Shown here: positions 4,955-31,724 of the stretch, piece after piece
Layout of the letters: every line of letters begins with the position of its first letter
Position numbering within the stretch: the stretch's first letter is position 1
DNA from: Thermoanaerobaculia bacterium
GTDB taxonomy: Bacteria; Acidobacteriota; Thermoanaerobaculia; Gp7-AA8
DNA length: 64,000 bases
Direction of reading: 5' to 3'
Assembly: GCA_041748075.1 (NCBI GenBank)
Contig: JBGTDX010000036.1
Location: 58,505 to 122,504 of the forward strand
Position numbers and translations under genes: made by a program
The notes under the pieces: model-generated
What the model was told of the DNA's origin: nothing
Seen by the model: only the letters and a program-made list of their open reading frames with translations
Databases searched by the model: none

Positions 4955-5016
4955 CAGCGAAGTCGCAAGGCCTCCGCACCCGCGGCGTTTCTCACCTTTG
5001 TAGCGACGCGGGCGGG

Positions 5017-11900: not shown

Positions 11901-13013
11901 TCAGAACCGCAGAAGCGCCCCGACTCCTTCGTAGTTCAAAAGGGGCGAGGGGCCGGGAACGAGCTCCACCTGGGCGCCTTCCGTTTCGGCCGCCGCAATG
12001 AGTTCTTCGCCGAGGTCGACGCTCCGGACGCTCCTGCCACAGGCAGGGCAGCTGAGCGGAACCTGGTGGCCGATCGTGCTGCAGCTCGTGCACTGCCAGC
12101 CCGCCAGGACCGCGTCGGTATGAAGGAACAGGTGAAGGATGCTACGCATGTTTGCAGCGGCCGTGACCGATTCCGGTCCGAGGGCGCCGCGCTCTTTCTT
12201 TCGGCCGGCCTCTTCCAGGGAGACGAGCCGTTCTCCGCGCGTTCGAACCTGATGCTGTCGGATCAGGGTCAGACAAGCCTCGGTGATTTCACCCTGCTCA
12301 CTCCGTATATCGAGGTGGAGAGTGCCGATGACCCTGTCATCAACGCGCTTTGGAAGAAAGCTGCGGAAGTTGGCCAGGTTGCGCTCCTGCCCGCTGATGA
12401 TCACACACGGAAACCGTTCGCTGTCGATCATCCGTGCGAGAACCTCCGCGACCTCCTTATGATGGCGGTCGATGTGGTCCCTGACGTGTCGCTGCATATT
12501 CGCCTGGGACCAGCCGCCCTGATCGTGCGACCGGGGCGTCTCAGGATGTTCCAGGTCGATTTCGTAAAGAATGCGCCCGAATGCCAGCTCGAATATGCGC
12601 GCGTACTTGGCGTCGACCATCACCAGGGCTGCGGGCGGATACTCCTGCCGCAGCTGGGCGAGCGGTTTGAGATGGGGCCGGTTCCCGATGCTGACATGTG
12701 GCGTCAGCGGAACCGGGAGCTCGATCGGAACGAAGAACTCCTGGGCCGGACAGCAGAACATGGCCAGGCCGCGCGTCGCGGGATCGAGCGACTTCGCGAC
12801 GTACTCTTCGATCTGTAGAGTCGCCCGTTCCACCTCGCGCTTGTGACCGTTGACGCTGAGCTCGTCTCTGACGCGCTTGAGCTCGTCTTTGAGATAGAGC
12901 CGGAGGCGGTCTTCCTGGGCTTCGTCTCCCCTCGTGGTGTCGAGGTAGAAACTGACGAAGGCATCGTCGCTGCCTCCCAGGGCTGCAAGCTGCCGGATCT
13001 GTTCGGTAATCAT
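11901..13013 (-). CDS. eRF1/Pelota-like (baeRF / VLRF1 superfamily) three-domain protein with C-terminal zinc-ribbon insert
   Basis: Length and domain spacing resemble the eRF1/Dom34 N, central and C domains. The central region carries a Gly-Gly-x-x-Gln loop (HDQGGWSQ) where release factors carry GGQ. CTSCSTIGHQVPLSCPACG zinc ribbon. Assignment is from memory of the baeRF families, not from a search. Confidence 0.5.
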   Translation of the reverse strand: MITEQIRQLAALGGSDDAFVSFYLDTTRGDEAQEDRLRLYLKDELKRVRDELSVNGHKREVERATLQIEEYVAKSLDPATRGLAMFCCPAQEFFVPIELPVPLTPHVSIGNRPHLKPLAQLRQEYPPAALVMVDAKYARIFELAFGRILYEIDLEHPETPRSHDQGGWSQANMQRHVRDHIDRHHKEVAEVLARMIDSERFPCVIISGQERNLANFRSFLPKRVDDRVIGTLHLDIRSEQGEITEACLTLIRQHQVRTRGERLVSLEEAGRKKERGALGPESVTAAANMRSILHLFLHTDAVLAGWQCTSCSTIGHQVPLSCPACGRSVRSVDLGEELIAAAETEGAQVELVPGPSPLLNYEGVGALLRF

Positions 13014-13237
13014 TCGGGACTCCTCTCGGGTGATGTTGGAGAATGGGGAAGCGACACGGACTCCAGCTCGTCGCCTAAATGCGGAACGAGAGTACGTGCA
13101 CGATGAAGGTGCACGGTCCAGATCAGCAGAAGTAACAGGACGACCAGCAGGCCGATGCCGATCAAAGCTGATAGTCTTCGAATCATCGCACCGTGTAGCT
13201 CATGAGATTTTTAGCAACGGATGTGCCACGGAGGGGA

Positions 13238-13267
13238 AGTACACAGTACACACTACACAGTAGACAG
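13238..13267 (+). repeat. Tandem heptamer repeat (GTACACA x4, degenerate) in the divergent promoter region
   Basis: gtacaca gtacaca ctacaca gtagaca read directly from the sequence, between the baeRF gene and the ADH gene. Confidence 0.5.
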
Positions 13268-13361
13268 AAGGCTGTGAAGACTGAAGACGACAAACTCCGG
13301 TCGCTCCTGTCGACGCCCTTCGGTCTCCTGTCTCCTGCCTGGCTGATCAGATGAGGTTCCA

Positions 13362-14387
13362 TTGAAAGCTGTCGTCATTCGCGAACATGGTGGACTCGAG
13401 CGGCTCGAGCTGGTCGAACATCCCGATCCTGATGACCGGAATCGGGCCATCATATCCGTTCGGGCGGTAGCGCTGAACCATCTCGACATCTGGCTCCGGC
13501 GAGGTGTCCCGGGACACAGGTTCCCGCTGCCGATGATTCCAGGCTCCGAAGTGAGCGGGGTGATCGAGTCGCTCCCGTATGAAGCGGGTCCATTCGTTCC
13601 GGGAGACGAAGTGATCGTGGCGCCCGGAGTCTCATGCGGACTCTGCATTGCCTGTACGAGCGGCAACGATCCTCTCTGCAGGGGCTTCGGCATTCTGGGA
13701 GAGACCGAGAACGGCGGGTGTGCCGCACGGATCGCCGTGCCGGTGAGGAATCTCGTCCCGAAGCCGCCGTCTCTCTCATTCATCGAAGCCGCCGCTCTGC
13801 CGCTGGATTTCCTCACCTCGTGGCACATGCTCGTGGCGAGAGCCGCAGTCAGGCCGGGAGAGACCGTGCTGGTGCATGCCGGCGGGTCCGGCGTGGGTAG
13901 CGCGGCACTTCAGATCGCAAAGCTCTGGGGTGCGGTTGTCATCGCCACCGCCGGAACGAAAGAAAAAATCAACCAGGCGCTCGAGCTCGGAGCAGATCAC
14001 GCCATCCCTTACCGCGAGGTCGACTTCGTTGCCGAAGTGAGAAAGCTCACCGGCAAGCGAGGCGTGGACATCGTAGTCGAGCACGTGGGCGCCGAGACGT
14101 TCGACGGTTCGATGAGGTCGCTCGCGAAGGGTGGACGTCTCGTTACCTGCGGAGCGACGACCGGCGCAGAGGTGACGATCAATCTTCGCCTCGTTTTCTT
14201 CAAGCTGCTCTCGATTCTCGGCTCTACGATGGGTAGTATCGGCGAGCTGCATGAGATCATGAAACATGTGAACGCCGGCAGACTGCGTCCCGTGGTCGGA
14301 AAGGTGCTTCCGCTCGATGCCGTCGCCGAGGGACACCGCCTTCTGGAGAACCGCGAGGTGTTCGGCAAGGTCGTGCTTGAAACCTGA
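13362..14387 (+). CDS. Zn-dependent alcohol dehydrogenase / quinone oxidoreductase (medium-chain dehydrogenase/reductase family)
   Basis: GroES-like N-domain carrying the structural-zinc Cys cluster (CGLCIACTSGNDPLC). Rossmann motif GGSGVGSAALQIAK. Confidence 0.85.
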   Translation: MKAVVIREHGGLERLELVEHPDPDDRNRAIISVRAVALNHLDIWLRRGVPGHRFPLPMIPGSEVSGVIESLPYEAGPFVPGDEVIVAPGVSCGLCIACTSGNDPLCRGFGILGETENGGCAARIAVPVRNLVPKPPSLSFIEAAALPLDFLTSWHMLVARAAVRPGETVLVHAGGSGVGSAALQIAKLWGAVVIATAGTKEKINQALELGADHAIPYREVDFVAEVRKLTGKRGVDIVVEHVGAETFDGSMRSLAKGGRLVTCGATTGAEVTINLRLVFFKLLSILGSTMGSIGELHEIMKHVNAGRLRPVVGKVLPLDAVAEGHRLLENREVFGKVVLET

Positions 14388-14445
14388 ATCTGTCTCTGAG
14401 TTGTGACGGGCTCCGAGCTACAACTACCCACAACCAACATCGTCC

Positions 14446-16233
14446 ATGTCTCCCATCCACGTGCTTCCTGATGCATTGATCAACCAGATCGCCGCCGGCG
14501 AGGTGGTCGAGCGTCCCTCCTCAGTCGTCAAGGAACTGGTGGAGAATTCCATCGATGCGGGTGCGCGGCGCATCGAGATCGTCCTCGAGCAGGGCGGCCG
14601 GAAGCGGATCGAGATCCGTGACGACGGTTGCGGTATGAGCGAGAGCGATGCACTCCTTGCAATCGAGCGCCATGCAACCTCGAAGATCGCACACTTCGAT
14701 GACCTTCTCGCCGTCTCCACGCTCGGGTTCCGCGGGGAAGCCCTCCCGTCCATCGCCAGCGTTTCGCGCTTCACGATGCAGACCTTCGACGGCCTGAGTG
14801 AATCCGGAATCGAGATCTCCTCGGATCCGGCGAGGGGACGGTCGGTCCGTCCGATTGCGCGGGATCGGGGAACGACCATCTCGGTCCTCGAGCTGTTCGA
14901 AAATGTTCCAGCCCGGAGGAAGTTTCTCAAAAGCGCCGATGCCGAGTTTCGCGCGATTGTGTCAGTCGTTTCATCGTATGCGCTTCCGGAACCCTCGCGC
15001 GCCTTCCGGCTCGAGCACAACGGCAGGGTCGTGCTCGACCTGGTTCCCGTCGCCACCCGAAGGCATCGAGTGCTTCAGATCCTCGGCAACGAGGCCGATG
15101 GGCAGCTCGAAGAAATCGATATGACGATTGAAGACTGTACGGCGAGCGGATTCGTGACCCGCGGTCTCCGCTACGGTAGCCGGCGGAACCAGTATTTCTT
15201 CGTGAACGGCCGTCTCGTGAAGGACCGCGTGCTGACGCATGCGGCGAACCGTGCTGCCGATGCGTTCGATTTCGACGGCCATCCGGCAGTCTTCCTCTTT
15301 CTCGACATCGCGCCCGAAACCATCGATGTCAATGTGCATCCGGCGAAGACAGAAGTGCGGTTCCGCGATTCAGGCAAAGTGCATGTAGTCGTCGAGCAGG
15401 GCGTCCGACGGGCCCTCGGAGGAGCCGAGGAAGGAAGAGGGCTGCTCCGGCCGGCTGAAGGGCCCGCCCGCGCGGACTTTCCCGATTCGGAAGTGCGAAA
15501 CGGATCCTCGGCCGCCTCACCAGCCGGAAGTTCTCTTTTTTCTTCCGTAAGTACGAACCAGGGAGTGCGGGAATATGTCGTTCATGAGGTGACACCGCTT
15601 TTCCAGCAGCGTGCCGTCGTACAGCCGCCCGTTGCGTCCTCACCGGACCGCCTTGGTTCGCTTCGCGGCCGGGTGATCGGCCAGTACCGGCTCAGCTACA
15701 TCCTGCTGGATACGCCGGACGGCCTCCGCCTGGTCGATCAGCATGTGGCGCATGAGCGGATCCTGTACGATCGCTTTGCCCGGATGCTGGAAGCGCGCGC
15801 TCCCGAGACGCAGCGCCTGCTCACCCCGTTTTTGTACGACGCAGGAGCCGCCGAGTGCGCCATCCTCGAGTCTCACCTCGACGAGTTGCGCGGGGTCGGT
15901 TTCGAAATCGAACGATTTTCAGGTAACACGTTCGCCGTGAGTGCGATCCCGCTCGCGATGCAGCGAGAGCGCCTCGAGACGTTCTTCGGCAAAGTGATCG
16001 ACGCCTCACTGGACGAGAAGGGCTCACATACGACCCGGCTTCGGGAACGGGTCATTGCTTCCCTCGCATGCCAGGCGGCGATCAAAGTGCACAGGCCGTT
16101 GTCGGGTGAAGAGATGTCACGCCTGGTGGAAGAACTGCTCGAATCATCGAACCCCTACGCATGTCCGCACGGAAGGCCGATCATCGTCGACATCCGCCAC
16201 ATCGACATCGAGAAACACTTTCACCGCAAGTGA
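14446..16233 (+). CDS. mutL: DNA mismatch repair protein MutL
   Basis: GHKL ATPase motifs (ELVENSIDAGA, DDGCGM) in the N-terminal domain, plus the C-terminal dimerisation domain. Confidence 0.9.
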   Translation: MSPIHVLPDALINQIAAGEVVERPSSVVKELVENSIDAGARRIEIVLEQGGRKRIEIRDDGCGMSESDALLAIERHATSKIAHFDDLLAVSTLGFRGEALPSIASVSRFTMQTFDGLSESGIEISSDPARGRSVRPIARDRGTTISVLELFENVPARRKFLKSADAEFRAIVSVVSSYALPEPSRAFRLEHNGRVVLDLVPVATRRHRVLQILGNEADGQLEEIDMTIEDCTASGFVTRGLRYGSRRNQYFFVNGRLVKDRVLTHAANRAADAFDFDGHPAVFLFLDIAPETIDVNVHPAKTEVRFRDSGKVHVVVEQGVRRALGGAEEGRGLLRPAEGPARADFPDSEVRNGSSAASPAGSSLFSSVSTNQGVREYVVHEVTPLFQQRAVVQPPVASSPDRLGSLRGRVIGQYRLSYILLDTPDGLRLVDQHVAHERILYDRFARMLEARAPETQRLLTPFLYDAGAAECAILESHLDELRGVGFEIERFSGNTFAVSAIPLAMQRERLETFFGKVIDASLDEKGSHTTRLRERVIASLACQAAIKVHRPLSGEEMSRLVEELLESSNPYACPHGRPIIVDIRHIDIEKHFHRK

Positions 16234-16252
16234 GCATCAGTTGAGATTCTTC

Positions 16253-16669
16253 AGCGTGCTTCGTTCAGCAGCCAGCATCGCTCCGCGCGATCTCGGACGT
16301 GCGGGTGAGTCGAGAGGTGTCTGGTTCTACCGTTGGCGGGGTTACCGGATCGTGGCGAGAAATCTTCGCTCGAGTGACGGTGAGATCGATCTGGTCGTCA
16401 CGCGGGGGAAGACGATCGCATTCGTCGAGATCAAGTCGCGGCAGACGAAGGACAGAGGGTCGCCGCACGAAGCAGTGAACCGGGCCAAGCAGCTGCAGGT
16501 TGCAAGGCTGGCCGCACGGTTTCTCGCGTCGAGCGGGGAACGGGAGGCCCGCGTCGTCCGATTCGATGTTCTGTCGCTCTACTGGAACGGAAGAAAGTTC
16601 GAGATTGAGTGGTTCCCTGCCGCCTTTGAACTGCAGGCAGACCCCTCCCGCCCATGGAAGCCTAGGTGA
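16253..16669 (+). CDS. yraN: YraN-family (UPF0102) endonuclease-like protein
   Basis: GYRIVARNLRSSDGEIDLVVTRGKTIAFVEIKSRQT matches the YraN core (GYRILARNWRxxxGEIDLIA...VFVEVKxR). Start chosen at the in-frame GTG 17 nt after the mutL stop; the ORF-track ORF begins inside mutL. Confidence 0.55.
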   Translation, partial: SVLRSAASIAPRDLGRAGESRGVWFYRWRGYRIVARNLRSSDGEIDLVVTRGKTIAFVEIKSRQTKDRGSPHEAVNRAKQLQVARLAARFLASSGEREARVVRFDVLSLYWNGRKFEIEWFPAAFELQADPSRPWKPR

Positions 16670-17159
16670 ACATCTCCTCGCGCTCGGGGCTTTCAACGGA
16701 TCCTCGTTTGCTCTGCGTTGCCGCCAGAATCTGTGCGACGAGCAGGAGCATCGCCACGTCGCGCAGGAGCACAGTCTTCATCTCTCCGATCAGAACTTCT
16801 CGCGGCTTGTCTGCCGAGGCGAGGTCGAAGCATCCGCAATTGACCGGATTGTTGCGCGCGAGGTTGATGCCGATCCCGATGATGAAAACGAGAAGCATCG
16901 CTCCGATGAAGACCGCCGCGGTTCGCCGCCAGATTCCGAGAATCAACGCGATGCCCGTGAGCAACTCGATCCAGGGGAGAATCAGTGCGACCAGGTTTAC
17001 CAGTGGGCCTGGAAGCAGGCGGTAGTTGTAGATCATCTGCGCGAAGCTGGGCGGGTCGACGAGTTTCGGAAGCGATGCCACAACAAAAATCACCCCGAGC
17101 GCGATCTGCACGCGGACCGTGAGCCAGGGATGAAGGAGCCAGCGTGAGACGGAGCTCAC
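16662..17159 (-). CDS. MauE/DoxX-family membrane protein
   Basis: Four TM helices and the conserved NCGCF motif. GTG start overlaps the TGA stop of the upstream rhodanese gene (GTGA). Confidence 0.6.
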   Translation of the reverse strand: MSSVSRWLLHPWLTVRVQIALGVIFVVASLPKLVDPPSFAQMIYNYRLLPGPLVNLVALILPWIELLTGIALILGIWRRTAAVFIGAMLLVFIIGIGINLARNNPVNCGCFDLASADKPREVLIGEMKTVLLRDVAMLLLVAQILAATQSKRGSVESPEREEMFT

Positions 17160-17878
17160 TGCTCCGGCCCGCGGGCAACGGCCCGGCCACGCCTCTGCCA
17201 GTCCGGGAACCCTTCCCTGTAAACGAGCACGTTGTCGAAGCCGACTCCCCATAGCTTCTGTCCGAGCATGTGCGAGTCTTCGCACTCTCCGCCGCTGCAG
17301 TAGATGACGACCGGCGCATTCTGGTCTCGACCTTCGTCATAGAGTGCGGCCACACGCGCGTCCGCGTCAGCCTCCCAGACCGGTATGCTTCGCGCGCCGG
17401 CGATGTGACCCTGGTTGAAAGCGTCCGTGCGGCGCGCGTCGATGAAAAGGGACTTGCGTCTGTGGAGCTCGATCACATCTTCAGGGCTGATTTCGACCCA
17501 CGGTCTTTCAGGATCAGGCGGGAATGCCTTCGGCGTCGAGGCCGCGACGGCGGAAGCGGCCGTCGCGGTTGGAGAGGGGAGCGAGGCCGGTTGGGGCTCG
17601 AGGCGTAAAGGCAGGCCCGGATCGGATTGCGGCACCGCTGCCGGCGGGATGGCATCGAGAGCTGGCCGCAGAATCTGTGCTTCCGGCGGAGCGGCGGTGC
17701 TCGTGGCCACGCTCGCTGGAGCCGGAGCCGCGGCGACGGGGACGACGAGAGCGTTTGGATAATCGGCTCGCCACGCTACCTTGCGATTCCGCGCGGCGAC
17801 GGCGTTGGCAACCGTCGCGCAGAGCACGGCGATCACGATGATTGCGACGGCTTCAGCTGCAAATCTCTTCTTGTCCAT
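17156..17878 (-). CDS. Membrane-anchored rhodanese (sulfurtransferase) domain protein
   Basis: N-terminal TM, Ala/Pro-rich linker, rhodanese fold with active-site loop VVIYCSGGEC. Confidence 0.75.
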   Translation of the reverse strand: MDKKRFAAEAVAIIVIAVLCATVANAVAARNRKVAWRADYPNALVVPVAAAPAPASVATSTAAPPEAQILRPALDAIPPAAVPQSDPGLPLRLEPQPASLPSPTATAASAVAASTPKAFPPDPERPWVEISPEDVIELHRRKSLFIDARRTDAFNQGHIAGARSIPVWEADADARVAALYDEGRDQNAPVVIYCSGGECEDSHMLGQKLWGVGFDNVLVYREGFPDWQRRGRAVARGPEQ

Positions 17879-17942
17879 CGTCGGTTACGGTGGCGGACCA
17901 CGTTGAGATCAACGCACAGAGTGCCGGACTCATTCGCGGAAG

Positions 17943-17976
17943 CAAAAATGAGAGGGGCCGCTCTTGCGGCCCCTCT
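17943..17976 (-). terminator. Rho-independent terminator following tRNA-Gly
   Basis: Stem gaggggccgc/gcggcccctc with tctt loop, followed on the minus strand by UUUUU. Confidence 0.65.
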
Positions 17977-17989
17977 GGCTGGATACGAT

Positions 17990-18064
<75 letters not shown>

Positions 18065-18152
18065 TAACGGCTTGTGTACTCTAGGCATTGGCCCGAGAGC
18101 TTGTCAAGCGCCGTCCATAACGGCCGGTCGGCTCTGCGGTATTCCCCCCCGT

Positions 18153-18322
18153 GGGAGTTCTGAGTTCTGAGTTCTGAGTTCTGAGTGGTAGTTCCGGCGT
18201 TCTGGGTTCTCGGAGCCCGGGATCCTTCCAGGATCTGCACCCTCGAGGAAAGAAATCGTCCGCTGCGCTCAAGCATGACACCACGCTCGTACCACTCAGA
18301 ACTCAGAACTCAGAACTCAATT
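18153..18322 (+). repeat. MITE-like palindromic element with ~35-nt terminal inverted repeats made of GAGTTCT heptamers
   Basis: Left arm gagttctgagttctgagttctgagtggta is the reverse complement of right arm taccactcagaactcagaactcagaactc. ~100-nt core. Sits between tRNA-Gly and the 3' end of the sigma54 regulator gene. Confidence 0.65.
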
Positions 18323-19672
18323 GGGTCGCTCCACCTGAATTCCATATGCATGGAGTTTGCGGTAGAGATTCGAGCGTTCCACCCCGAGTGCGTCGGCGGT
18401 GCGGCTGACGTTGCCGGAGTGCTCGCGAAGGCGGGTGAGGATGAACTCTTTTTCGAACTCTTCCCGCGCTTCGCGCAGGGTCATGTCGGATCGGACAAGG
18501 ACGCGGCTCCCTGGGCGGTCTCCGCCGAGCTCGATTGCGTCCCGCTCGATCGTTTCGCCGGGAACGAGAATCGTGAGACGCTCGATCAGGTTGCGCAGCT
18601 CGCGCACGTTTCCAGGCCACGCATAACCGCGAAGGAGTGCTGCTGCGGACGGAGAGAGTTTCTTCGGTTTTCGCCCGGTCTCTGCAGCGAAGCGGCGAAG
18701 AAAGTGTCCGGCCAGAATGATGACGTCATCGCCGCGGGCGCGCAACGGCGGAACATGAATCGGGATCACATTGAGGCGGAAGTAAAGGTCCTCGCGAAAC
18801 GAGCCGTTCGCGATCTCGACGTCGAGATTCTTGTTCGTGGCGGCGATGACGCGGACATCGGCCGAGATGGTCTGCTGGCCGCCGACTTTCTGAAACTTCT
18901 GTTCCTGGAGCACGCGAAGTACTTTTGCCTGCGTACGGAGGCTCATGTCGCCGATCTCGTCCAGGAAGAGCGTTCCACGGTCCGCGAGCTCGAACTTTCC
19001 CTTCCGATCATCGATTGCGCCGGTGAATGCTCCCTTGCGATGTCCGAAGAGCTCCGACTCGATGAGCTCCTCGGGGATAGCCGCGCAGTTCACATCGACA
19101 AACGGGGCATCGGCTCTTCGGGACTGGCGGTGCAGTGCCCTCGCGACGACTTCCTTTCCGCTGCCATTCTCTCCTGTGATCAGCACGCGGCTGCTGGATG
19201 GAGCCGCGCTCTCGATCTGCTGCTCGAGACGTTTCATTGCTTCGCTCTCTCCGATGAGTATTTCCTCGAGCGACAGATGCTCCCGCAGGTTGCGGACTTC
19301 CTCGCGGAGCTTTCGGTCGGCGAGCGCGTGATCGACTGTCAGCAGGACACGCTCGAGTGAGAGAGGCTTTTCGAGGAAATCGTAGGCGCCGAGACGCGTA
19401 GCCTTCACCGCAGTCTCGACGGTGCCGTGACCGGAGATGAGCACGACCGGAGGAGTTCCTCCGACGCTTTTAAGCCGCTCGAGAACGTCGAGGCCGTCGA
19501 CACCCGGAAGCCAGACATCCAGCAGTACGAGATCGAAGTCCTCCCGCGCGTAGGTGGCAAGTCCTTCTTCCCCCGAATCACACAGCACGGTCTCGTGGTC
19601 TTCGTCGCCGAGAATGCGCGCGAGTGTCGTCCGGATCGCCGGCTCGTCGTCGATGATCAGTATTTTAGCCAT
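18317..19672 (-). CDS. Sigma-54-dependent response regulator (NtrC/NtrX family: REC + AAA+ sigma54-activation + Fis-type HTH)
   Basis: MAKILIIDDEP receiver. GESEAMKRLEQQI...ITGENGSGKEVVARALH Walker A. GAFTGA motif. C-terminal HTH. Start set at the ATG matching the receiver N-terminus; the ORF-track start lies 237 nt upstream. Confidence 0.9.
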   Translation of the reverse strand: MAKILIIDDEPAIRTTLARILGDEDHETVLCDSGEEGLATYAREDFDLVLLDVWLPGVDGLDVLERLKSVGGTPPVVLISGHGTVETAVKATRLGAYDFLEKPLSLERVLLTVDHALADRKLREEVRNLREHLSLEEILIGESEAMKRLEQQIESAAPSSSRVLITGENGSGKEVVARALHRQSRRADAPFVDVNCAAIPEELIESELFGHRKGAFTGAIDDRKGKFELADRGTLFLDEIGDMSLRTQAKVLRVLQEQKFQKVGGQQTISADVRVIAATNKNLDVEIANGSFREDLYFRLNVIPIHVPPLRARGDDVIILAGHFLRRFAAETGRKPKKLSPSAAALLRGYAWPGNVRELRNLIERLTILVPGETIERDAIELGGDRPGSRVLVRSDMTLREAREEFEKEFILTRLREHSGNVSRTADALGVERSNLYRKLHAYGIQVERPN

Positions 19673-19715
19673 GACATGTGTATGCGATTTCTGAGTTGCG
19701 GTTCCTCGAGCCGCC

Positions 19716-21860
19716 TCAAGCAGGAATCTCGATCTCGAAGCGCGTTCCGCGGGGAGCCTTGTCGTGAACCGAGATGCGTCCGTCGTGGTCGTGAACGATT
19801 CGATGAACGATCGCGAGGCCGAGTCCCGTGCCTTCGCGCTTGGTCGAAAAGTAGGGGAGGAAGAGCTTTTCCTTGTCGGCATCGGGGATGCCTCGTCCCG
19901 GGTCTTCAACGGTGATGACCAGAGAGTGTTCCTGGGTAGTCGCGCTCAGGAGAATCTCGCCCTGATCTGTGGCTTCGATCGCATTGTCGATCAGATTGAT
20001 GAGCGCCCGGCGGATCTGCTGCGGGTCGAGGATGACGCGGATCGCCGGATCGCAGCGGACGATCAGCGACACTCCCGGTTTGACGTCGCGATAGAGCCGC
20101 GCGACTTCCTCGAAGATTTCTGTTATTGCCGTCTGTTTGAGGTCGATTGCCGGCATTCGGGCGAAGCGCGAAAACTCGTCGACGAGCCGCTTGAGCTGCG
20201 CGACTTCGGACACGATGGTCTCGCAGCCTTCGGTGACAGCGGCTGCCGTGTCGGGATCGCCATTGCGGAACTTCTTCGCGATGCGTTCGGCCGAGAGCTG
20301 GATCGGCGTGAGAGGGTTTTTGATCTCATGGGCGATTCGCCGGGCCGCTTCGCTCCACGCGGCAAGCTTCTGCGCCTGCACCAGTTCGGTCAGATCTTCG
20401 ATCGCCATCACCCAGCCGCCGCGACCTCCGCTGCCCTGAAGCGGCGCCACGGAGATCTCGAGGTAGCGAAGCTCCCCGCCACGGATCAGCGTCAGTTCGC
20501 GGGTTCTTCCTTCCGTGGGTCGTTCCGTGAGATGTTCGCTGAGAATCGACAGATCTCCAGGAAACGCGACATCGAGAGTGGCGAGCGGCGGTGGTTCGGC
20601 GATCTGAAGCATGTGGAGCGCGGCCTGATTGATGCTGAGCAGCCTGAGGTCTTCGCTGAATGCGAGAATTCCGGTCGACACGCTTTCCAGGACCGTCGAG
20701 AGATAGGCACGCTCCTCGTTTATTTTCCGATTCGCCTGCTGGAGCTCCACGTTCGAATCGGTCAGAGCATCACGCTGCGCTTCGAGCTGTGAAGCCATTC
20801 CGTTGAATGACTCGATCAGCACGCCGAATTCATCCGTAGCCTTCACGCCAATTCGATGGCCGTACTCACCCCGCGCCAGCGTCTGTGTCCCTTCTGCCAG
20901 TGCCTGTACCGGAACCGTGATCCTTCGCGATACGAAGATTGCCGTCCAGAGGACTCCGAACAGGATCGAGAGGGTCACGGTGAGGAACAGCGAGGTCTGT
21001 GATGCTTTCAATGCGGCCCGCTGTGAATTGAGTTGCTGAAAGTTTGCGTATGCGACGATGTTCTCATCGAGCATCCGGCTCAGGCTGTTCGGCAGGAAAA
21101 TGCCCGCGATGGCGACCTGCTCGCCTTCCGTGCCGACTCTAACCGCATACCGGATCCATTTACCGCTGTCGACGACGTCGATCTTGCGCGCATGACCGTT
21201 CGCAAGCACCTCTTCGAAGAATCGGGACGGCGGCTCGGAGATCTCGTGAACGGGAATCTTGGGATCCGCCTGCAACCTCATGATCACGCCGGAATCGTAC
21301 GCGCCGACCAGATCTACGTCGTGGTGTGTCCGGACATGAGCCAGAGCCTGATCGAGAGCGGCGGCTCCGTCCCGCGCGACGATGCTGGCCACTTCGCCGG
21401 CGGCCTTCCCCGCCTGAGCTCCGGCGCGCTCCTGAAGTTCCTGTGCGATCGCTTCGCTGTTCTCGAGAAGCGAGCTTACGGGTGTGTTGAACCAGCGGTC
21501 GATCGAGACCCGTAGCAGATCCGTCGCGACGAAAAACAGGACGCCGATCGGCAACAGTGACGTGACCAGATAGGTGGCCACCAGCTTGGAGCGGAATCGC
21601 GCCCCCAGGATGCCCCGCTGGCGCTCGAGGAGCACCTTGAGAATCGCGCGCAGAAGAACGAAAACGATTCCCAGTATGAGAATCAGATTGATGTTCCAGA
21701 GAACGAACAGAAGCAGACGGCTGCTCAGAGCTTCCGTCGTGAGCTCACGGCCACGCTGTATAACGTAGTAGATCAGGCTCGTGACTGTGATGATCAGAAG
21801 CGGCGCGCCGAATACGACGCGCGGATCCTTGCGATAATCCAGTAGCGATCGGTTCTTCAT
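19716..21860 (-). CDS. Sensor histidine kinase (NtrY-like: TM-HAMP-PAS-HisKA-HATPase)
   Basis: H-box AHEIKNPLTPIQLSAERI. N, G1 and G2 boxes (NLIDNAIEA, DPGRGI, GTGLGLAIV). Lies upstream of, and in the same operon as, the sigma54 regulator. Confidence 0.9.
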   Translation of the reverse strand: MKNRSLLDYRKDPRVVFGAPLLIITVTSLIYYVIQRGRELTTEALSSRLLLFVLWNINLILILGIVFVLLRAILKVLLERQRGILGARFRSKLVATYLVTSLLPIGVLFFVATDLLRVSIDRWFNTPVSSLLENSEAIAQELQERAGAQAGKAAGEVASIVARDGAAALDQALAHVRTHHDVDLVGAYDSGVIMRLQADPKIPVHEISEPPSRFFEEVLANGHARKIDVVDSGKWIRYAVRVGTEGEQVAIAGIFLPNSLSRMLDENIVAYANFQQLNSQRAALKASQTSLFLTVTLSILFGVLWTAIFVSRRITVPVQALAEGTQTLARGEYGHRIGVKATDEFGVLIESFNGMASQLEAQRDALTDSNVELQQANRKINEERAYLSTVLESVSTGILAFSEDLRLLSINQAALHMLQIAEPPPLATLDVAFPGDLSILSEHLTERPTEGRTRELTLIRGGELRYLEISVAPLQGSGGRGGWVMAIEDLTELVQAQKLAAWSEAARRIAHEIKNPLTPIQLSAERIAKKFRNGDPDTAAAVTEGCETIVSEVAQLKRLVDEFSRFARMPAIDLKQTAITEIFEEVARLYRDVKPGVSLIVRCDPAIRVILDPQQIRRALINLIDNAIEATDQGEILLSATTQEHSLVITVEDPGRGIPDADKEKLFLPYFSTKREGTGLGLAIVHRIVHDHDGRISVHDKAPRGTRFEIEIPA

Positions 21861-22399
21861 CGCGCGGTCCCGACGCGGGCCTGCTCCCAGCCGGTCGAGA
21901 TGTTCCAGGGAACGATGTGCAGCAGGTAGCCCTGCATCAGGTCCGCCCGTACACGAACCCGTACCTTTTCAGGTCTACGACCTTCGAGCGGCAGCAGTTG
22001 CGTTTCCGAGATGACCGTCATCTCCCGCTCGAGCGCATCGAATCGTGTGAACACCTCGGTGCGGATCAGCCGTCGGTTCCGGCGGTAGTTCAGCAGGTAC
22101 TCCTGCGTGATCGAGTTGTACGTCGCGATGACCTCGACCGTCGCAGTCGAGATCCGCTGATCGAACCAGTTCGGACGCTTTCTGATGAGCTCGAAGTGGT
22201 AGGTGAATCCCGTGGATACACCACTGCGCAGGGCGTCCAGGATCTCCGGCCGCGAGAAGCCGTTTTCCAGCTGGAAGGTGACGTTCACGTGACTCCCGCC
22301 GGCGGACCCTTTGAGTTGGACGATCCGCGCCTCGCTGTCAGCGCGCAGAGTTCCTGAAAAGAGGCCGGCCGCGAGAAACAGAATCAGAAGACGCCTCAT
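21857..22399 (-). CDS. DUF4390-like periplasmic protein, first gene of the HK/RR operon
   Basis: Signal peptide. 4-nt overlap with the kinase start. DUF4390 proteins typically precede NtrY-type kinases (recalled association). Confidence 0.55.
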   Translation of the reverse strand: MRRLLILFLAAGLFSGTLRADSEARIVQLKGSAGGSHVNVTFQLENGFSRPEILDALRSGVSTGFTYHFELIRKRPNWFDQRISTATVEVIATYNSITQEYLLNYRRNRRLIRTEVFTRFDALEREMTVISETQLLPLEGRRPEKVRVRVRADLMQGYLLHIVPWNISTGWEQARVGTAR

Positions 22400-22472
22400 G
22401 TGGCTTTTTTACCACAGCAAGGCGTAACAGCGAATAAAATCTGCGATCCCCGTCAGGAAGCCGACAGGGTGA

Positions 22473-23378
22473 TCAGCTCAGCAACCAGGTGTTCTCGACG
22501 CTGGACAGGGGAACCGGTACTTCGTCGGCTGCATCATCGGTGGTCCAGCAGTGCGGATGATCCAGGATTGCACCGACCAGCTTCGAGTGCATCGCGTGGC
22601 CCGCACGGGTCGCGATGACCTCCCCCAGCAGAGGGCGCCCCAGGAGCGCCAGGTCGCCCAGAAGGTCGAGGATTTTGTGGCGCACGAACTCGTCGCGGAA
22701 TCGCAAAGTTCCGTTCACGACGCCCTGATCGTCGAGCACGATGCAGTTTTCGACCGAGCCGCCTCGCGCCAACCCTGCGGCCCGAAGCTGCTCGACCTCC
22801 CGAAGGAACCCGAAGGTTCTGGCCGGAGCGATCTTGCGCGCGAACTGATCCCCGTCGAGCTGGAAGTGCATGGATTCCCGCCCGATCAGCGGATGATTGA
22901 AGTCGATTTTGTAGCGGACTGCCAGTCTCGAGGCCGGCACGATCCGGATGGATTTCACGCCGTCGACCACCTGGATCGGCTGGGTGATGCGAAGTGCGCT
23001 CACCGTGGAACCGAGGTTCCTCACGCCTGCTGCATCGAGCAGGTGGGCGAAGGGCAGCGCGCTGCCGTCGACGATCGGAACCTCCGGACCATCGATATGA
23101 ATGTCGAGATCGGTGATTCCATATGCGAAAACGGCAGACAGGAGGTGTTCGACCGTTCCGATCGAGACATCGTCTTTACCCACCGTAGTGGCATAATCAA
23201 GTGATGTGGTGCACGCCTGCAGCGCTGGAATCCGCAGGTCATTCAAATCCGTGCGGACGAACGTGAGCCCGCTGCCTGCTTGCGCGGGGTGCAGTTCGAC
23301 TTTGGTGTAGATTCCGGAATGGAGGCCGATTCCCTCGATTCCCACGACAGCGGAAATGGATTTTCGTTCGATTAGCAT
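22473..23378 (-). CDS. lpxC: UDP-3-O-acyl-N-acetylglucosamine deacetylase LpxC
   Basis: MLIERKSISAVVGIEGIGLHSGIYTKVELHPA... matches the LpxC N-terminus (zinc-binding HxxxG and later HKxLD motifs present). ORF-track N-terminal extension discarded. Confidence 0.85.
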   Translation of the reverse strand: MLIERKSISAVVGIEGIGLHSGIYTKVELHPAQAGSGLTFVRTDLNDLRIPALQACTTSLDYATTVGKDDVSIGTVEHLLSAVFAYGITDLDIHIDGPEVPIVDGSALPFAHLLDAAGVRNLGSTVSALRITQPIQVVDGVKSIRIVPASRLAVRYKIDFNHPLIGRESMHFQLDGDQFARKIAPARTFGFLREVEQLRAAGLARGGSVENCIVLDDQGVVNGTLRFRDEFVRHKILDLLGDLALLGRPLLGEVIATRAGHAMHSKLVGAILDHPHCWTTDDAADEVPVPLSSVENTWLLS

Positions 23379-23599
23379 GGACCCTTCGATCAACGGTGGA
23401 CTCTGCAGAGTCACAGAGCAGGGGCGGTGCCACAGGACAGTAATCCGGTGAATCGTAGTAACATCTTTGAAATCATGAGTTTGGTGGATCAGGCCCCGAG
23501 GGTGTCGTGGCGATCTCTGTAGCAGAGTTAGGCCAGTGATGTAGCGGAAAAGGCACACTAACGGTTTCGCGACCGTACGTGTGCGGAGCTGAAGCGAAA

Positions 23600-25183
23600 A
23601 TGACCTCAGAATTCGCCACGATCGAGCCGAAGCTCAAGGAGATTCTCTACCGTTGCCTGGAGGATATTCGCGCTACGAAGGCGGCCCTGTACCTGAGTAA
23701 CTCCGAGACGACCTATGCGATGGTCACGCAATACGGCTTCCGCGATCTCGACCGGAAACAGATCGAAGCAAGGGACGACCTGATCGACCGCCTCATCGTG
23801 AAACGCACGCCGTTTTATGTGAATAGTCTCACCGAGGAGCCGCGGTACTCGCAGACGCTGTTCTCGTCGGGCACCACGCGGATGCTTCTCGCGCCGATTC
23901 ATTCGCGGGGTCGCCTCATCGGGTTTCTCGACCTTCGGGACAAGGCCGCACAGCAGCCGTTCAATACGACCGACATTTCGGACGTGCAGACGATCATCGA
24001 TCAGTTTCTCGATTTCTTTGCGGAACGCGGCCTCTATGGCCTGAAGACATCCTCGAGCGATGTTTCCCGGGTCTCGCTTGCCCCGGTAGCACAGCCGAAC
24101 ACCGCGATGAACAGCATCGATGATGCACGCCGGGCCGTGGCGCGCGGCATCCTAAGGGCGCGGCCCATTGCCAGCGTCCTGACCGAAGCGCAGCTCGACG
24201 CCGGAGCTGCGATCCTTCCGGCAGTGCTCTCACTTCCGGGCGCCGAGGTCGCCGCTCTCTCTTCGTTCGGCCAGAACACGGGCGGACGGAGAATTGCCGC
24301 CAGAGCCGAACTGTCGGTCGACGCGAGTGAGAAACTCGAGGAGAAGCTCGTTGCATGGCTCCGCAAACGGGGCGAGCCCGAGACCGTCACGTCGTCGAGT
24401 ACCTCCTTTCCACTCGGGAAAGCGCCAGCGATTGATGCAAACAGGCTCGGCGCAATTCTCAGCGCCTCGATCAAGCTCGGTAACTTGCGCGGTGTGGTTC
24501 TGACCGCCGGTTTCGACGGCCAGCCAACCGTTCATACCCGCGGTCTTCTGGCCGGGATGCTCAAGCAGTGCACCGAGATTCTCGGTTACGCCGTCGAGCA
24601 CGAGGCAAGCCGGGCGAGCAGGACCAGGATCGCAGAAAAGCTGCTCGAGCCGGATTTCCAGCGGTTCCCCCTGCTGGCCGCTCACTGCAAACGCGTGTCG
24701 GAACTTGCCGAGCGCCTCGCCATCTTTGCAGGTCTTACAGCGGAAAACGCCGAGCACGCCCGCCTGGCGGGTATGGTTCACGACGTCGGCATGCGGTTGC
24801 TGGACTATCACCATCTCTATCGGAAGGCGACGGTGACGGCCGAGGACCTGAAGATTCTCAGGGAGCATGCCGTGGTGGGGGCTGCGCTGGTAGCCGACTC
24901 GGCTCTCGGGCCCGAGATCGCGAACATCGTCCTGTGCCATCACGAGCGCCCGGACGGCGGAGGCTATCCCAACGGGCTGTCGGGCGACAGCATCCCGGTT
25001 GTCTCGCGGGTAATCCATGTCTGCGAGGCGTTCGATGCAATGACGGCCGCCGATTCGTACCAGACGGCCGTTCCCGTGCCCGCTGCCCTCTCGCGGATCC
25101 GCCGCGTGGCCGGCGCACAACTCGACGAAGATCTCGCAAACAAATTCATCGAGATGCAGACCACCCAGCCGCGGCTGCCCTAG
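23600..25183 (+). CDS. GAF-domain protein with C-terminal HD-GYP phosphodiesterase domain
   Basis: HD...HHERxDGxGYP signature (MVHDVGM ... CHHERPDGGGYPNGL). The N-terminal ~330 aa is consistent with tandem GAF-like domains. Confidence 0.8.
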   Translation: MTSEFATIEPKLKEILYRCLEDIRATKAALYLSNSETTYAMVTQYGFRDLDRKQIEARDDLIDRLIVKRTPFYVNSLTEEPRYSQTLFSSGTTRMLLAPIHSRGRLIGFLDLRDKAAQQPFNTTDISDVQTIIDQFLDFFAERGLYGLKTSSSDVSRVSLAPVAQPNTAMNSIDDARRAVARGILRARPIASVLTEAQLDAGAAILPAVLSLPGAEVAALSSFGQNTGGRRIAARAELSVDASEKLEEKLVAWLRKRGEPETVTSSSTSFPLGKAPAIDANRLGAILSASIKLGNLRGVVLTAGFDGQPTVHTRGLLAGMLKQCTEILGYAVEHEASRASRTRIAEKLLEPDFQRFPLLAAHCKRVSELAERLAIFAGLTAENAEHARLAGMVHDVGMRLLDYHHLYRKATVTAEDLKILREHAVVGAALVADSALGPEIANIVLCHHERPDGGGYPNGLSGDSIPVVSRVIHVCEAFDAMTAADSYQTAVPVPAALSRIRRVAGAQLDEDLANKFIEMQTTQPRLP

Positions 25184-25186
25184 CTT

Positions 25187-25412
25187 GCCCGCCCTCCCTC
25201 CCGGTTGTGGGTTCTGCACGCCCAAGCGCCCATAAGCCCGCACGGGTCTGGGTTCTGCACACCCACCAGGCCGCCGGTTCTGGGTTCTGAGTTCCCACCC
25301 TTCCCCTGCGTTGGGAGGGCGGGAACCCAGAACCCACAACCGTGTGGTGGGTGGGTGTGCACAACTCACAACCGGTTGGGCGGTCGGGCGGTCGGGGGGG
25401 GAGGCGGTGTAG
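25187..25412 (+). repeat. Large imperfect palindromic repeat element containing CCGGTTGTGGGTTCTG units
   Basis: gccctccctcccggttgtgggttctg (25190-25213) and its reverse complement cagaacccacaaccg...gggagggcggg (25312-25343) flank GGGTTCTG tandem units. The same core occurs at 8.06 kb. Confidence 0.6.
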
Positions 25413-25425
25413 AATCCCCTCCCCG

Positions 25426-25896
25426 ATGGCTGCAACCAAGGATTCGGGCGAAAAGCTCATCGCCAGCAACAAGAAAGCCTTCCATGAGTACTTCGTTTTG
25501 GACAGGTTCGAAGCGGGGCTCGTACTGACGGGTACGGAGGTCAAGTCTCTGCGGGACGGACATGCGAACTTCAAGGACAGCTATATCCTTCTCAAAGGTG
25601 GGGAGGCGTTTCTGTTCGGCGCGCACATTTCTCCCTATTCGCACGGAAATCTCGAGAACCATGATCCGGAGCGCACCCGGAAGCTGCTGCTTCACCGGCG
25701 CGAGATCGAAAAACTCACGACCCAGGTCGTGGAAAAAGGCCTCACTGTCGTTCCGCTGCGCCTTTACTTCAAAGGTGGCCGCGTGAAGGTGGAGATCGCA
25801 GTGGTGCGCGGAAAGAAGCTCTATGACAAGCGGGAGACTGAAAAGCGGCGCGAGATGGACCGCGAGACCGCCGCGGCAATCAAGTCAGGTCGATGA
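25426..25896 (+). CDS. smpB: SsrA-binding protein SmpB
   Basis: KLIASNKKAFHEYFVLDRFEAGLVLTGTEVKSLR...GKKLYDKR is a canonical SmpB sequence. Confidence 0.9.
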   Translation: MAATKDSGEKLIASNKKAFHEYFVLDRFEAGLVLTGTEVKSLRDGHANFKDSYILLKGGEAFLFGAHISPYSHGNLENHDPERTRKLLLHRREIEKLTTQVVEKGLTVVPLRLYFKGGRVKVEIAVVRGKKLYDKRETEKRREMDRETAAAIKSGR

Positions 25897-26001
25897 GCAC
25901 GAACGGTTCAGATCTGAAGAATGAAGCTTCGAGCAGTGGGCTTCAGTCTTCAACTTTGAGCCTTTGACTTCACACTCAACTTTCGGGAGACCATTCAGTT
26001 C

Positions 26002-27060
26002 ATGAAGAAGAAAAACATCGTCCACGTTGTCGGTACCGGCACGATCGGAGAGCCGCTCATCGGACTTTTCACCGATTTCCAGGAGCAGTGGGGAATCGAT
26101 GAGGTCACATTTCACAAACGCACACCCAAAGCCGACGATCGTGCAATGGTCGAGCAGGTCCTTCGCAAGGGTGCCAAGCTCGTGGTCGACGAGAACGCAC
26201 GGCCCGAGTTCGAGTCGCTGGGTCATCGCGTCTCGTTCGATGCGGAAGAAGCGATCGATCGCGCCACCGTCGTGGTCGACTGTACGCCCGCGGGAAATGA
26301 CAACAGGGCGCGCTACTACGACCGGATGAAAGGACCTCTCGGCTTTATCGCCCAGGGTTCCGAGTTCGGATTCGGAAAGCCCTACGCGCGCGGAATCAAT
26401 GATGCCGTGGTCTCAGCCGACGAGCGGTTCCTGCAGGTCGTGTCATGCAACACCCACAATATTGCGGTGCTGATCAAGACGATCGCTGAGACTGACGGAA
26501 CGATAGCCCTCGAAGGTGGCAGGTTCGTCTGCATGCGCCGCGCAAACGACGTCTCCGATTCGAAGTCCTTTCTCGCGGCTCCCGAGGCTGGCAAGCACGA
26601 TGATCCCGAGTTCGGCACGCACCACGCCCGCGACGCCTACCACCTCTTCACTACGATCGGTGAGAAGCTGAATCTCTTCTCGTCCGCCATCAAGATCAAT
26701 ACGCAGTATATGCACACGCTCTGGTTCGACCTCGATCTTCGAAGGGATACTACGCTCGAGGAAGTCCGGGCGGCTTTCCGGAACAATCCCCGTGTTGCGA
26801 TTACGAACAAGCGCTCGTCGAATCAGATCTTCTCGTTCGGGCGCGACCACGGATACTTCGGGCGCATCCTCTCGCAGACGGTCGTCCCGATCCCAACGAT
26901 CGCCGTTCCGAACTCGCGCAAAGTCGTCGGCTTCTGTTACACGCCGCAGGACGGCAACTCGCTCTTGTCCTCGGTTGCTGCAACGCTTCAGTACCTTCAT
27001 CCGGAGGGTTTCGAAGAGCGCCTCGAGGTCCTCAGGCCGTACATGTTCCGGGAGATCTGA
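26002..27060 (+). CDS. Archaeal-type (type II) glyceraldehyde-3-phosphate dehydrogenase-like NAD(P)-dependent dehydrogenase
   Basis: N-terminal Rossmann GTGTIG and active-site motif VVSCNTHN, compared with type II GAPDH SCNTT. Length ~350 aa. Assigned from recalled motifs only. Confidence 0.5.
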   Translation: MKKKNIVHVVGTGTIGEPLIGLFTDFQEQWGIDEVTFHKRTPKADDRAMVEQVLRKGAKLVVDENARPEFESLGHRVSFDAEEAIDRATVVVDCTPAGNDNRARYYDRMKGPLGFIAQGSEFGFGKPYARGINDAVVSADERFLQVVSCNTHNIAVLIKTIAETDGTIALEGGRFVCMRRANDVSDSKSFLAAPEAGKHDDPEFGTHHARDAYHLFTTIGEKLNLFSSAIKINTQYMHTLWFDLDLRRDTTLEEVRAAFRNNPRVAITNKRSSNQIFSFGRDHGYFGRILSQTVVPIPTIAVPNSRKVVGFCYTPQDGNSLLSSVAATLQYLHPEGFEERLEVLRPYMFREI

Positions 27061-27172
27061 GCTCTCTCGCCGCTCGCGGCGTTCCAGCTGGTGCGACCGG
27101 CACGGCGGACGGGTTGTGCCTGCCTTTCGCGCGTGGAACGGCCTGCCTGCGACGTGTTAAAGTCCCCTCTCC

Positions 27173-28015: not shown

Positions 28016-28100
28016 AGAATTCAGAATTGAGAATTCAGAATTCAGAAAAGCGCGGAACACCAGTTGGAGATCTTTTCTGAATTCTGAGTTCTCAATTCTT
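28016..28100 (+). repeat. Heptamer-repeat hairpin element (GAATTCA/GAGTTCT units) between accD and folC
   Basis: gaattcagaattgagaattcagaattcagaaaag is the reverse complement of cttttctgaattctgagttctcaattcttgattc, giving ~32-nt arms and a 21-nt loop. Confidence 0.65.
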
Positions 28101-31684: not shown

Positions 31685-31724
31685 ACCCATGTCGTAAGAT
31701 CACTCTGGCGCTCCGGGCGGGCGC

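Follow-up and report, generated by a model that had tools for sequence, protein, structure and literature searches.

Heptanucleotide-repeat hairpins between genes of a Thermoanaerobaculia bacterium and their possible origin

What builds arrays of seven-nucleotide units between bacterial genes, and what keeps them there as pairs that fold into long hairpins? The question is raised by positions 18153-18322 of a 64,000-nt stretch of DNA (hereafter the window; contig JBGTDX010000036.1, positions 58,505 to 122,504 of the forward strand, assembly GCA_041748075.1) from a Thermoanaerobaculia bacterium of the Acidobacteriota. At this site two arrays of a GTTCTGA-type unit face each other at the 3' end of a regulator gene. 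An earlier note, made from the letters alone, had grouped it with six other intergenic sites as a dispersed family resembling MITEs (miniature inverted-repeat transposable elements), and had also considered terminators or insulators and binding arrays for a heptad-recognising protein. We find that the phenomenon is the heptad itself and not the sequence of its unit. We lean, with reserve, towards the view that the element is a heptanucleotide simple-sequence-repeat hairpin, probably born by slippage, copied from arm to arm, and tolerated at gene 3' ends as a transcript-end hairpin.

The focal element comprises two converging arrays around a spacer, with a regulator gene at one end and a tRNA-Gly unit beyond the other:

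18155-18190, left arm: (GAGTTCT)4.6, then the variant heptad GAGTGGT-A (Tandem Repeats Finder, TRF, and inverted-repeat search).
18191-18289, spacer or loop of 99 nt.
18290-18319, right arm: TACCAC(TCAGAAC)n (TRF and inverted-repeat search).
18317-19672, minus strand, sigma-54-dependent response-regulator gene, NtrC/NtrX-like (NCBIfam, E = 1e-144).
18107-18078, minus strand, tRNA-Gly promoter-like site: TTGACA, an 18-nt spacer and TAGAGT.
17990-18064, minus strand, tRNA-Gly(GCC) gene.

The stretch 18153-18322 as a whole reads GG(GAGTTCT)4GAGTGGTA + 99 nt + TACCAC(TCAGAAC)3TCA. By TRF, GAGTTCT was repeated 4.6 times at 18155-18186 and ACTCAGA 3.7 times at 18294-18319, both with 100% matches. 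Positions 18161-18190 and 18290-18319 form a perfect 30-bp stem (30-nt arms, 100% complementary), to which the non-periodic GAGTGGTA / TACCACTC junction belongs. On the minus strand, i.e., in the sense of the regulator gene, the right arm reads TGAGTTCTGAGTTC..., with the regulator stop codon first, and is the G-rich 5' arm of the mRNA, the left arm being the C-rich 3' arm. The heptamer array opens with the TGA stop itself (18317-18319), and the gene-sense strand there runs ...CAAT TGA GTTC TGA GTTC TGA GTTC TGA GTGGTA. The NCBIfam alignment of the regulator begins at residue 80 of the long open reading frame (ORF), the start of which has since been refined. In the spacer (18191-18289), the left part consists of decayed heptads (GTTCCGG CGTTCTG GGTTCTC); neither an ORF nor a known RNA family was found within it, and its fold showed local secondary structure only. 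In the Rfam search, the tRNA alone passed the gathering threshold, and the E-value mode returned sub-threshold microRNA hairpin models only. The element had been described as abutting both the regulator 3' end and a tRNA gene. The right arm does overlap the regulator TGA, but the tRNA-Gly gene lies 90 nt away with its own promoter in between. That promoter stands 47 nt past the distal arm and is the sole sigma-70-like site in the 19 kb scanned (13000-32000), and a canonical intrinsic terminator (17976-17951) follows the tRNA.

Five exact period-7 runs were observed in the window against 0.1 expected from dinucleotide shuffles, and one period-8 run against 0.3 expected. All seven intergenic sites listed in the earlier note stood far above chance, with lag-7 autocorrelations of 0.41-0.75 (shuffle p <= 0.0004) that extended to the degenerate site at 38179-38216, and two more sites were added. 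The proposal that several arrays are long inverted repeats able to fold into hairpins also held, in that the three paired sites, i.e., the focal one, 25187-25412 and the accD-folC spacer, are the best three inverted repeats in all 64 kb. At the second of these, arms of 91 nt (25214-25304 / 25313-25403) are 71% complementary, and at the third, arms of 37 nt (28014-28050 / 28072-28108) are 92% complementary. Predicted RNA folds reached -98 kcal/mol at the focal site, -54 at accD-folC and -165 at 25187-25412, with z-scores of -7.6 to -8.6 against shuffles. TRF gave 4.6, 3.7, 4.6, 3.6 and 4.6 units for the window arms. A CRISPR array, which had been discounted from the start, was rejected here as well: such an array requires direct repeats of 24-40 nt with unique spacers, whereas here 7-mers follow one another without a gap and the two runs face each other in inverted, not direct, orientation. 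A sequence core said to be shared by some sites, CCGGTTGTGGG, proved to be enriched, with two copies exact and five at one mismatch where 1.1 would be expected, but it is merely two variant heptads (CGGTTGT GGGTTCT), and five of the seven copies lie in the sites at 8049-8105 and 25187-25412.

Arrays of the same kind are not confined to the window but occur in relatives and in many other phyla. Two sets of loci were analysed: a GTTCTGA-selected set from a scan for (GTTCTGA)3 in one genome per species (824 kb in total), and an unselected set of 80 metagenome loci anchored on AccD only (682 kb). The scan found (GTTCTGA)3 at no fewer than 115 loci from more than 15 phyla. Among the matches listed, the selected loci held 350 arrays at period 7, made of 158 different units, whereas periods 6 and 8 gave 58 and 66, respectively. 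In the unselected loci, arrays of at least 3.5 copies numbered 65 at period 7 and 20, 24 and 9 at periods 6, 8 and 9, respectively; 80 different period-7 units were present, GTTCTGA not among them. A privileged status for GTTCTGA was not shown, since in viral contigs, where it was compared with three composition-matched controls (3, 9 and 7 loci), (GTTCTGA)3 was no commoner (5 loci). Likewise, the idea that units are chosen to place a stop codon in all three frames fits GTTCTGA, CTACTGA and GGATGAA, but was rejected as a general rule because many units, GTTGGCG, AAGGGCA and CAACGTC among them, carry no stop on either strand and some stops lie on the wrong arm. As to the idea of a discrete element of 31 nt with fixed ends, GTTCTGA arrays often start AGTT and end GAGT, most such 'ends' being variable positions of decayed units. 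One Acidobacteriaceae metagenome-assembled genome (MAG) contains nested arrays, (AGGGGCT)n, (AACTCAG)8 and (TAGCCCC)n, the array of one heptamer lying inside the loop of another heptamer's hairpin (L100:5328-5452).

Whatever the unit, the arrays follow common rules. When two arrays lay within 300 nt of each other in the unselected set, 23 pairs were inverted, none direct and 5 unclear, and in the selected set 44 were inverted against 7 direct among the matches listed; unpaired arrays were about as frequent as paired ones. With a detection floor of two units, the most common array length was four units (about 31 nt), both for GTTCTGA (41/123) and for other units (72/227). The 5' arm was G-rich and the 3' arm C-rich in 25 unselected pairs against 4 (p = 1e-4) and in 27 pairs of the GTTCTGA family against 3, a polarity that is true on both strands because the structure is palindromic. 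Gene context was assigned with a home-made codon-model gene caller that agreed with gene tables at about 90%; it missed folC, which was placed by hand, and the accD-folC spacer recurs among the loci counted. On this basis, 76 of the 98 period-7 arrays in the unselected relatives were intergenic, though the DNA is 90% coding, and paired arrays stood in co-directional spacers in 29 cases, in a convergent and a divergent one in one case each. Median distances were 4 nt from the upstream stop codon to the beginning of the hairpin (within 15 nt in 22/29) and 20 nt from its end to the next start codon. Finally, the arms co-vary: where the 5' arm departs from its consensus, the 3' arm shows the matching change at 40% of the positions, the expectation being about 3%.

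The arrays turn over rapidly at fixed positions. We compared contigs whose AccD is 95% (L121), 90% (L001) or 83% (L002 and L004) identical to that of the window; homologues of AccD place the window itself in the Acidobacteriota, among MAGs labelled Thermoanaerobaculia. The L121 contig covers the accD-folC spacer, and the smpB spacer was compared with L001 and L002. Gene order is kept in these contigs; the arrays are not conserved:

Regulator 3' end: (GTTCTGA)n pair in the window; (CTACTGA)n in L001; none in L002 or L004.
Regulator-kinase spacer: none in the window; TAGTCAG / CTACTGA pair in L001; none in L002; GTTGGCG / AACCGCC pair in L004.
Upstream of smpB: GGTTCTG palindrome in the window; GGATGAA / TTCATCT in L001; none in L002.
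accD-folC spacer: GAATTCA hairpin in the window; none in L001, L002 or L004; the same element, diverged, in L121.

Between the window and L121, the arms of this element are about 75% identical and the coding DNA alongside is 86% identical, but the loops are unrelated. Eight different units occupy the accD-folC spacer among relatives, half of these spacers being 25 nt or shorter. The promoter boxes TAGAAT (smpB) and TAAGAT (glyA) are conserved directly outside the arrays. The comparison of copy number covers a single close relative, L121, in which units and loop are altered; in L001 the arrays are longer and made of another unit. The contig of L001 ends within an (ACTACTG)7.9 array (L001:1-55), and a scaffold gap of Ns falls within its (GGATGAA)n array (L001:7109-7208). 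Since arrays break or collapse short-read assemblies, true array lengths in MAGs may be underestimated.

The origin that we favour, albeit not strongly, would run as follows. Slippage during replication would first expand, in place, a 7-nt unit beside a stop codon until about four units are present. This array would then be copied in inverted form, via fold-back or template-switch synthesis or arm-to-arm conversion, giving two converging arrays. Continued slippage and arm-to-arm copying would keep units uniform and arms complementary, with the unit sequence drifting fast between lineages. Arrays would survive only in non-coding DNA because seven is not a multiple of three. They would be retained wherever folding is least harmful, i.e., at sites where the foot of the stem adjoins the stop codon and the following promoter or start is left free; at accD-folC the element adds 95 nt, yet its folding would leave the stop and the next start a few nt apart. 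Upon transcription of either strand, the 30-bp stem would form at the extreme 3' end of the regulator message. It may there act as a barrier to 3' exonucleases, in the manner of repetitive extragenic palindromic (REP) sequences, and to read-through into the tRNA-Gly unit, rather than as an intrinsic terminator.

Several observations weigh against this account. Plain slippage predicts a falling distribution of array lengths, but the observed mode is at four units, and slippage leaves the polarity of the arms, G-rich first, unexplained. Related units recur across the window ([GA][GA]TTCTG at five sites, GACGAAT at two), a possible sign of movement from locus to locus or of sequence-level selection. 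Some heptamer hairpins in other genomes, in L174 and L170 and in a Phycisphaeraceae MAG, are clearly multi-copy, with conserved flanks or subterminal motifs. As to an effect in RNA, G:U-type and A:C-type mismatches did not cluster by hairpin (p = 0.10), so that no signature of RNA-level selection was seen in the mismatch types, and a T-rich tail follows 14 of 82 hairpins only.

The position of the hairpin, very stable, right after a stop codon and ahead of the next promoter, would suit a canonical Rho-independent terminator of the regulator gene. We consider this very unlikely. No U-tract follows either arm (the minus strand continues ...CAGAACTCCCACGGGGGGG), and a 30-bp stem with a 99-nt loop is far beyond terminator dimensions; the same genome has a textbook example after tRNA-Gly. 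A terminator scan predicted no site at the heptamer arrays. Across the hairpins surveyed, T is slightly enriched downstream (0.30 vs 0.20), the tails noted above being those with at least five T in the next 10 nt. The terminator or insulator role raised in the earlier note is plausible only in a loose sense, with hairpins at gene 3' ends, but not as an intrinsic terminator.

Could the arrays instead have been inserted? In this case a hairpin with heptad arms would be a non-autonomous element, like a MITE or a REPIN (a hairpin-forming REP doublet), placed in spacers by an enzyme encoded elsewhere. The window holds a dispersed family inside 48 kb whose units are related and whose arms are alike in length; its inverted repeats of 30-91 nt and non-coding elements of 95-226 bp fall within the 50-500 bp of MITEs, which are likewise small, bounded by inverted repeats, intergenic and dispersed. 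Presence and absence differ among relatives at the same spacer. The accD-folC junction also takes palindromes unrelated to heptads (L136, L124, L123) and looks like a hot spot for hairpin-forming insertions. Indeed, where other relatives hold heptamer hairpins, the accD-folC spacers of L136, L124, L123 and L174 contain unrelated strong palindromes, among them a perfect 29-bp stem in L136 and a 96-nt GC-rich palindrome in L124.

Elsewhere, true multi-copy elements with heptamer arms do exist. Two copies in L174 (L174:778-911 and 4931-5057) and one in L170 (L170:7432-7564) belong to one element, about 135 nt long, in which the flanks (CGGGTGATCGGGTGAACA... / ...TTCACCCGATCACC) and the loop (GACGAGCTTAGCCC) are conserved around arms of CGAAAAT / CGAGTTT, i.e., heptamer arms inside a MITE-like repeat of two genomes. 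A Phycisphaeraceae MAG, CAZYPK01 (L026, L085, L105), carries at least eight copies of (AGTTCCG)4.6-loop-(AACTCGG)4.6 with subterminal GGAAGGCA / TGCCTTTC. In CAZYPK01 the loop between the arms varies (43-51 nt), the left flank is often A-rich and the right flank T-rich, like bidirectional terminators.

The window copies differ from MITEs in having no visible target-site duplication and no conserved internal sequence, and within the 64 kb no related autonomous element was seen. By eye, the flanks do not match at the focal site (CCCCCGTGG / ATTGGGTCG), at accD-folC (GAGGAACT / CAGCCATG) or at 25187-25412 (CCTAGCTT / AGGCGGTG). When the window copies were aligned, identity was confined to the heptads, with no common termini or inner sequence and no conserved REP-like head visible. 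Units differ between sites, loops are unrelated even in homologous copies, and unpaired arrays are about as common as pairs. The 80 different units found in close relatives would require as many element families, and no transposase-like gene was found among the approximately 20 window ORFs that were profiled. The MITE-like mobility first suggested for the window copies is thus not supported. Given the multi-copy elements in other genomes and the palindromes at accD-folC, we keep mobility as a second route to such hairpins, an unlikely one.

The remaining arrays of the window are the following:

8049-8105, minus strand: unpaired array, AACCCAG-type on that strand, with a 9-bp hairpin bearing the CCGGTTGTGGG core; TRF, TGGGTTC x3.9 at 8074-8100. 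An OmpA-family gene lies upstream of it and a thymidine kinase gene downstream.
13238-13267, plus strand: (AGTACAC)4.3 (TRF), absent from the earlier note, located ahead of an alcohol-dehydrogenase-family gene in a divergent spacer.
25187-25412, plus strand: long imperfect palindrome of GGTTCTG-type heptads, with GGTTCTG / GAACCCA arrays at 25276-25294 / 25323-25341 (TRF), flanked by an HD/GAF gene, whose stop is at 25183, and by the smpB -10 box (TAGAAT, ~25410).
28014-28108, plus strand: accD-folC intercistronic hairpin, (AGAATTC)4.6, a 21-nt loop and (TTCTGAA)3.6; TRF, AGAATTC x4.6 at 28016-28047 and TTCTGAA x3.6 at 28075-28099. The stem base touches the accD stop (28013-28015), the far end is 6 nt before the folC ATG (28114), and the variant unit AGAATTG is second in each arm.
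31650-31684, plus strand: unpaired array GTTCTGC ATTCTGT ATTCTCA ATTCTGA ATTCTCC; TRF, TTCTGAA x4.6 at 31651-31682. It covers the -35 region of glyA, 5' of the conserved -10-like box TAAGAT.
38179-38216, plus strand: degenerate array, CATTCNN x5, 21 nt before the ATG at 38237.
50659-50673, minus strand: mini-array (GAATGAC)2.1, absent from the earlier note, in the spacer before a TPR gene; TRF, CGTCATT x2.1, the reverse of GACGAAT, a unit also found at 55758.
55756-55812, plus strand: (GACGAAT)3.7, then the C-rich heptads CGCAATC CGCAACC CAGAACC; TRF, GACGAAT x3.7 at 55758-55783. The GACGAAT array spans the stop of a TPR ORF and the C-rich heptads reach the ATG at 55817.

All window sites are intergenic, arrays being present in about 9 of the 37 intergenic spacers of at least 40 nt, and arrays also precede the genes at 13362, 38237 and 55817. 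At 55756-55812, a G-rich array followed by a non-complementary C-rich one has the polarity of a hairpin without its pairing. Three features of the window lie apart from the arrays. Positions 8621-8688, inside the OmpA-family gene (8255-9658, minus strand), hold a GGC / TGGCGG repeat of period 3, 6 or 12 (about 21 triplets) that presumably encodes a low-complexity linker. The protein of 11901-13013 (minus strand) matches family 10 of the bacterial archaeo-eukaryotic release factors (baeRF, PF18854, E = 2e-28). The home-made gene caller called no gene in the 756 nt of 40628-41383.

The unpaired arrays over the promoter or leader regions of glyA and of the genes at 38237 and 55817 bear on another proposal, namely that the arrays bind a factor that reads one heptad per subunit and regulates the flanking genes. 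Candidate readers would be a ribbon-helix-helix repressor or centromere protein on DNA, like omega of pSM19035, or cold-shock or S1-type OB folds on RNA. Omega binds heptads arranged head-to-tail or converging, and poorly when they diverge, and a cold-shock domain covers 6-7 nt. An [AG]TTC core is common to most window units, and the preference for four units would be compatible with a factor whose sites are fixed in number. For the TAACTGA repeats described below, S1, Csp or CsrA have been proposed as readers (MacGregor 2015; PMC4679880), and in Nostoc the deletion of the heptamers changed recO promoter activity (preprint). Units in the window nevertheless differ from site to site (GTTCTGA, GAATTCA, GACGAAT, AGTACAC, CATTCNN), and close relatives, with their 80 units, almost never share a unit at one spacer, a diversity that is hard to reconcile with a single heptad-reading protein such as the earlier note envisaged. 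Moreover, the length mode and the polarity hold independently of the unit, which favours structure or mutation as the cause over a reader of a specific sequence. We regard binding arrays as decidedly improbable.

How do these hairpins relate to known heptamer repeats? Their closest likeness is to the GGGAATC repeats of Xanthomonas, of which each genome holds approximately 185 arrays, with 70-75 converging inverted pairs and 89-93% of arrays intergenic (Rehm et al., 2015, PLoS One; PMC4692102). Arrays of four units are preferred there, which was attributed to quadruplex formation, and the G-rich run is on the coding strand, 0-50 bp away from the stop codon and sometimes overlapping it; length differs between sister species and sequence, too, varies among close species, and neither a link to mobile elements nor a function was found (PMC4692102). 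Tandem 7-nt units, a mostly intergenic location and the four-unit preference are shared by the arrays described here, the Xanthomonas repeats and the Nostoc GGGGA(C/T)T repeats; converging pairs, the G-rich run first and proximity to the stop codon are shared with Xanthomonas, the focal array even containing the stop. The host, in contrast, belongs to the Acidobacteriota, the units (GTTCTGA, GAATTCA, GACGAAT) mostly have no G-tracts, and they vary by site and genome with no single dominant unit.

A G-quadruplex-forming repeat, in which four G-tracts explain four units as proposed for Xanthomonas GGGAATC and Nostoc GGGGAYT, would agree with the architecture and placement reported in 2015, and the GGGTTCT units of 8049-8105 and 25187-25412 do contain GGG. 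However, no two G are adjacent in the focal (GAGTTCT)n, and GAATTCA, GACGAAT, AGTACAC and many units of relatives, such as CGAAAAT, AGTAATG and AGTTATC, have no G-tracts. A tract of at least three G per unit is absent from GAGTTCT, AGAATTC and GACGAAT, which hold no GG at all. Units free of G-tracts still have the four-unit mode and the converging pairs. The rules of Xanthomonas being true of arbitrary units in another phylum, quadruplex formation is removed as a general explanation, and for the present element we find it hardly credible.

Other comparators share parts of this architecture. Reports of heptamer repeats go back to 1990 for cyanobacteria and to 2007 for prokaryotes at large. According to summaries of the survey by Mrazek, Guo and Shah (2007), heptanucleotides were the most abundant of the long simple repeats with units of 5-11 nt (PMC4679880, PMC4692102), and polymerase slippage was proposed, 7 nt being perhaps the length that interacts with the polymerase (PMC4679880). 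As so summarised, those repeats resemble the present ones in being heptads, mostly non-coding and patchy in taxonomic distribution, and they differ in that no inverted pairing, arm polarity or stop-codon anchoring is described. In marine Beggiatoaceae, cyanobacteria and Bacteroidetes, TAACTGA arrays stand before start codons (MacGregor 2015; PMC4679880). They too are short intergenic heptamer arrays (2-6 copies), and TAACTGA, the CTACTGA of L001 and GTTCTGA all end in CTGA. TAACTGA arrays are nearly all direct, with one indirect among 170, and lie upstream of start codons, often by a few nt, in genomes that make little use of Shine-Dalgarno sequences and have one dominant unit each; the paired arrays here, in contrast, follow stop codons. 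In viral contigs, (TAACTGA)3 was present in 107, against 3-9 for four other heptamers, and was strikingly common in phage-like contigs. The tandem string of GTTCTGA itself had no match in the literature searched.

REP sequences, bacterial interspersed mosaic elements (BIMEs) and REPINs of proteobacteria are likewise hairpins of intergenic DNA that stand at the 3' ends of genes and between cistrons, many per genome, and are thought to stabilise upstream mRNA and insulate transcription units. REPs, however, are non-periodic palindromes of 20-40 nt with a conserved GTAG or CGTC head, spread by REP-associated tyrosine transposases (RAYTs), whereas the arms here are periodic and their sequence is not conserved between copies. 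The short tandemly repeated repetitive (STRR) heptamers of cyanobacteria are comparable short intergenic arrays.

The four-unit mode and the G-rich-first polarity, which the slippage account leaves unexplained, are the main reason for keeping one further reading, namely that heptad hairpins are a general intergenic class, found across phyla and independent of unit, that is made or maintained by a specific mechanism. We hold this only as a tentative and rather doubtful proposal. Such a class may obey fixed rules, with a register of 7 nt, an arm length of about 4.4 units (31 nt), a 5' position of the G-rich arm on both strands, and a stem that has its base on the stop codon. Were it true, the hairpins could arise from the lengthening of 3' ends by 7 nt at a time, by a particular polymerase or repair pathway, and their subsequent head-to-head fusion. 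Alternatively, selection could act at the end of translation, through the shielding of untranslated RNA from Rho or through a stop-to-start proximity that serves re-initiation. The quadruplex explanation for Xanthomonas would then cover one special case within a broader phenomenon.

In practical terms, heptamer arrays lengthen intergenic spacers within operons, as between accD and folC, and act as breakpoints in short-read assemblies, as in L001; as fast-evolving markers, they could tell close strains apart. Repeats of this kind are already described in Xanthomonas and in cyanobacteria, their 7-nt unit, four-unit preference and role being unexplained in the literature. What is new here is that four units, converging pairs and proximity to the stop codon are independent of the unit sequence and extend to the Acidobacteriota, which sharpens the problem to the mechanics of replication and repair or to events at the end of translation.

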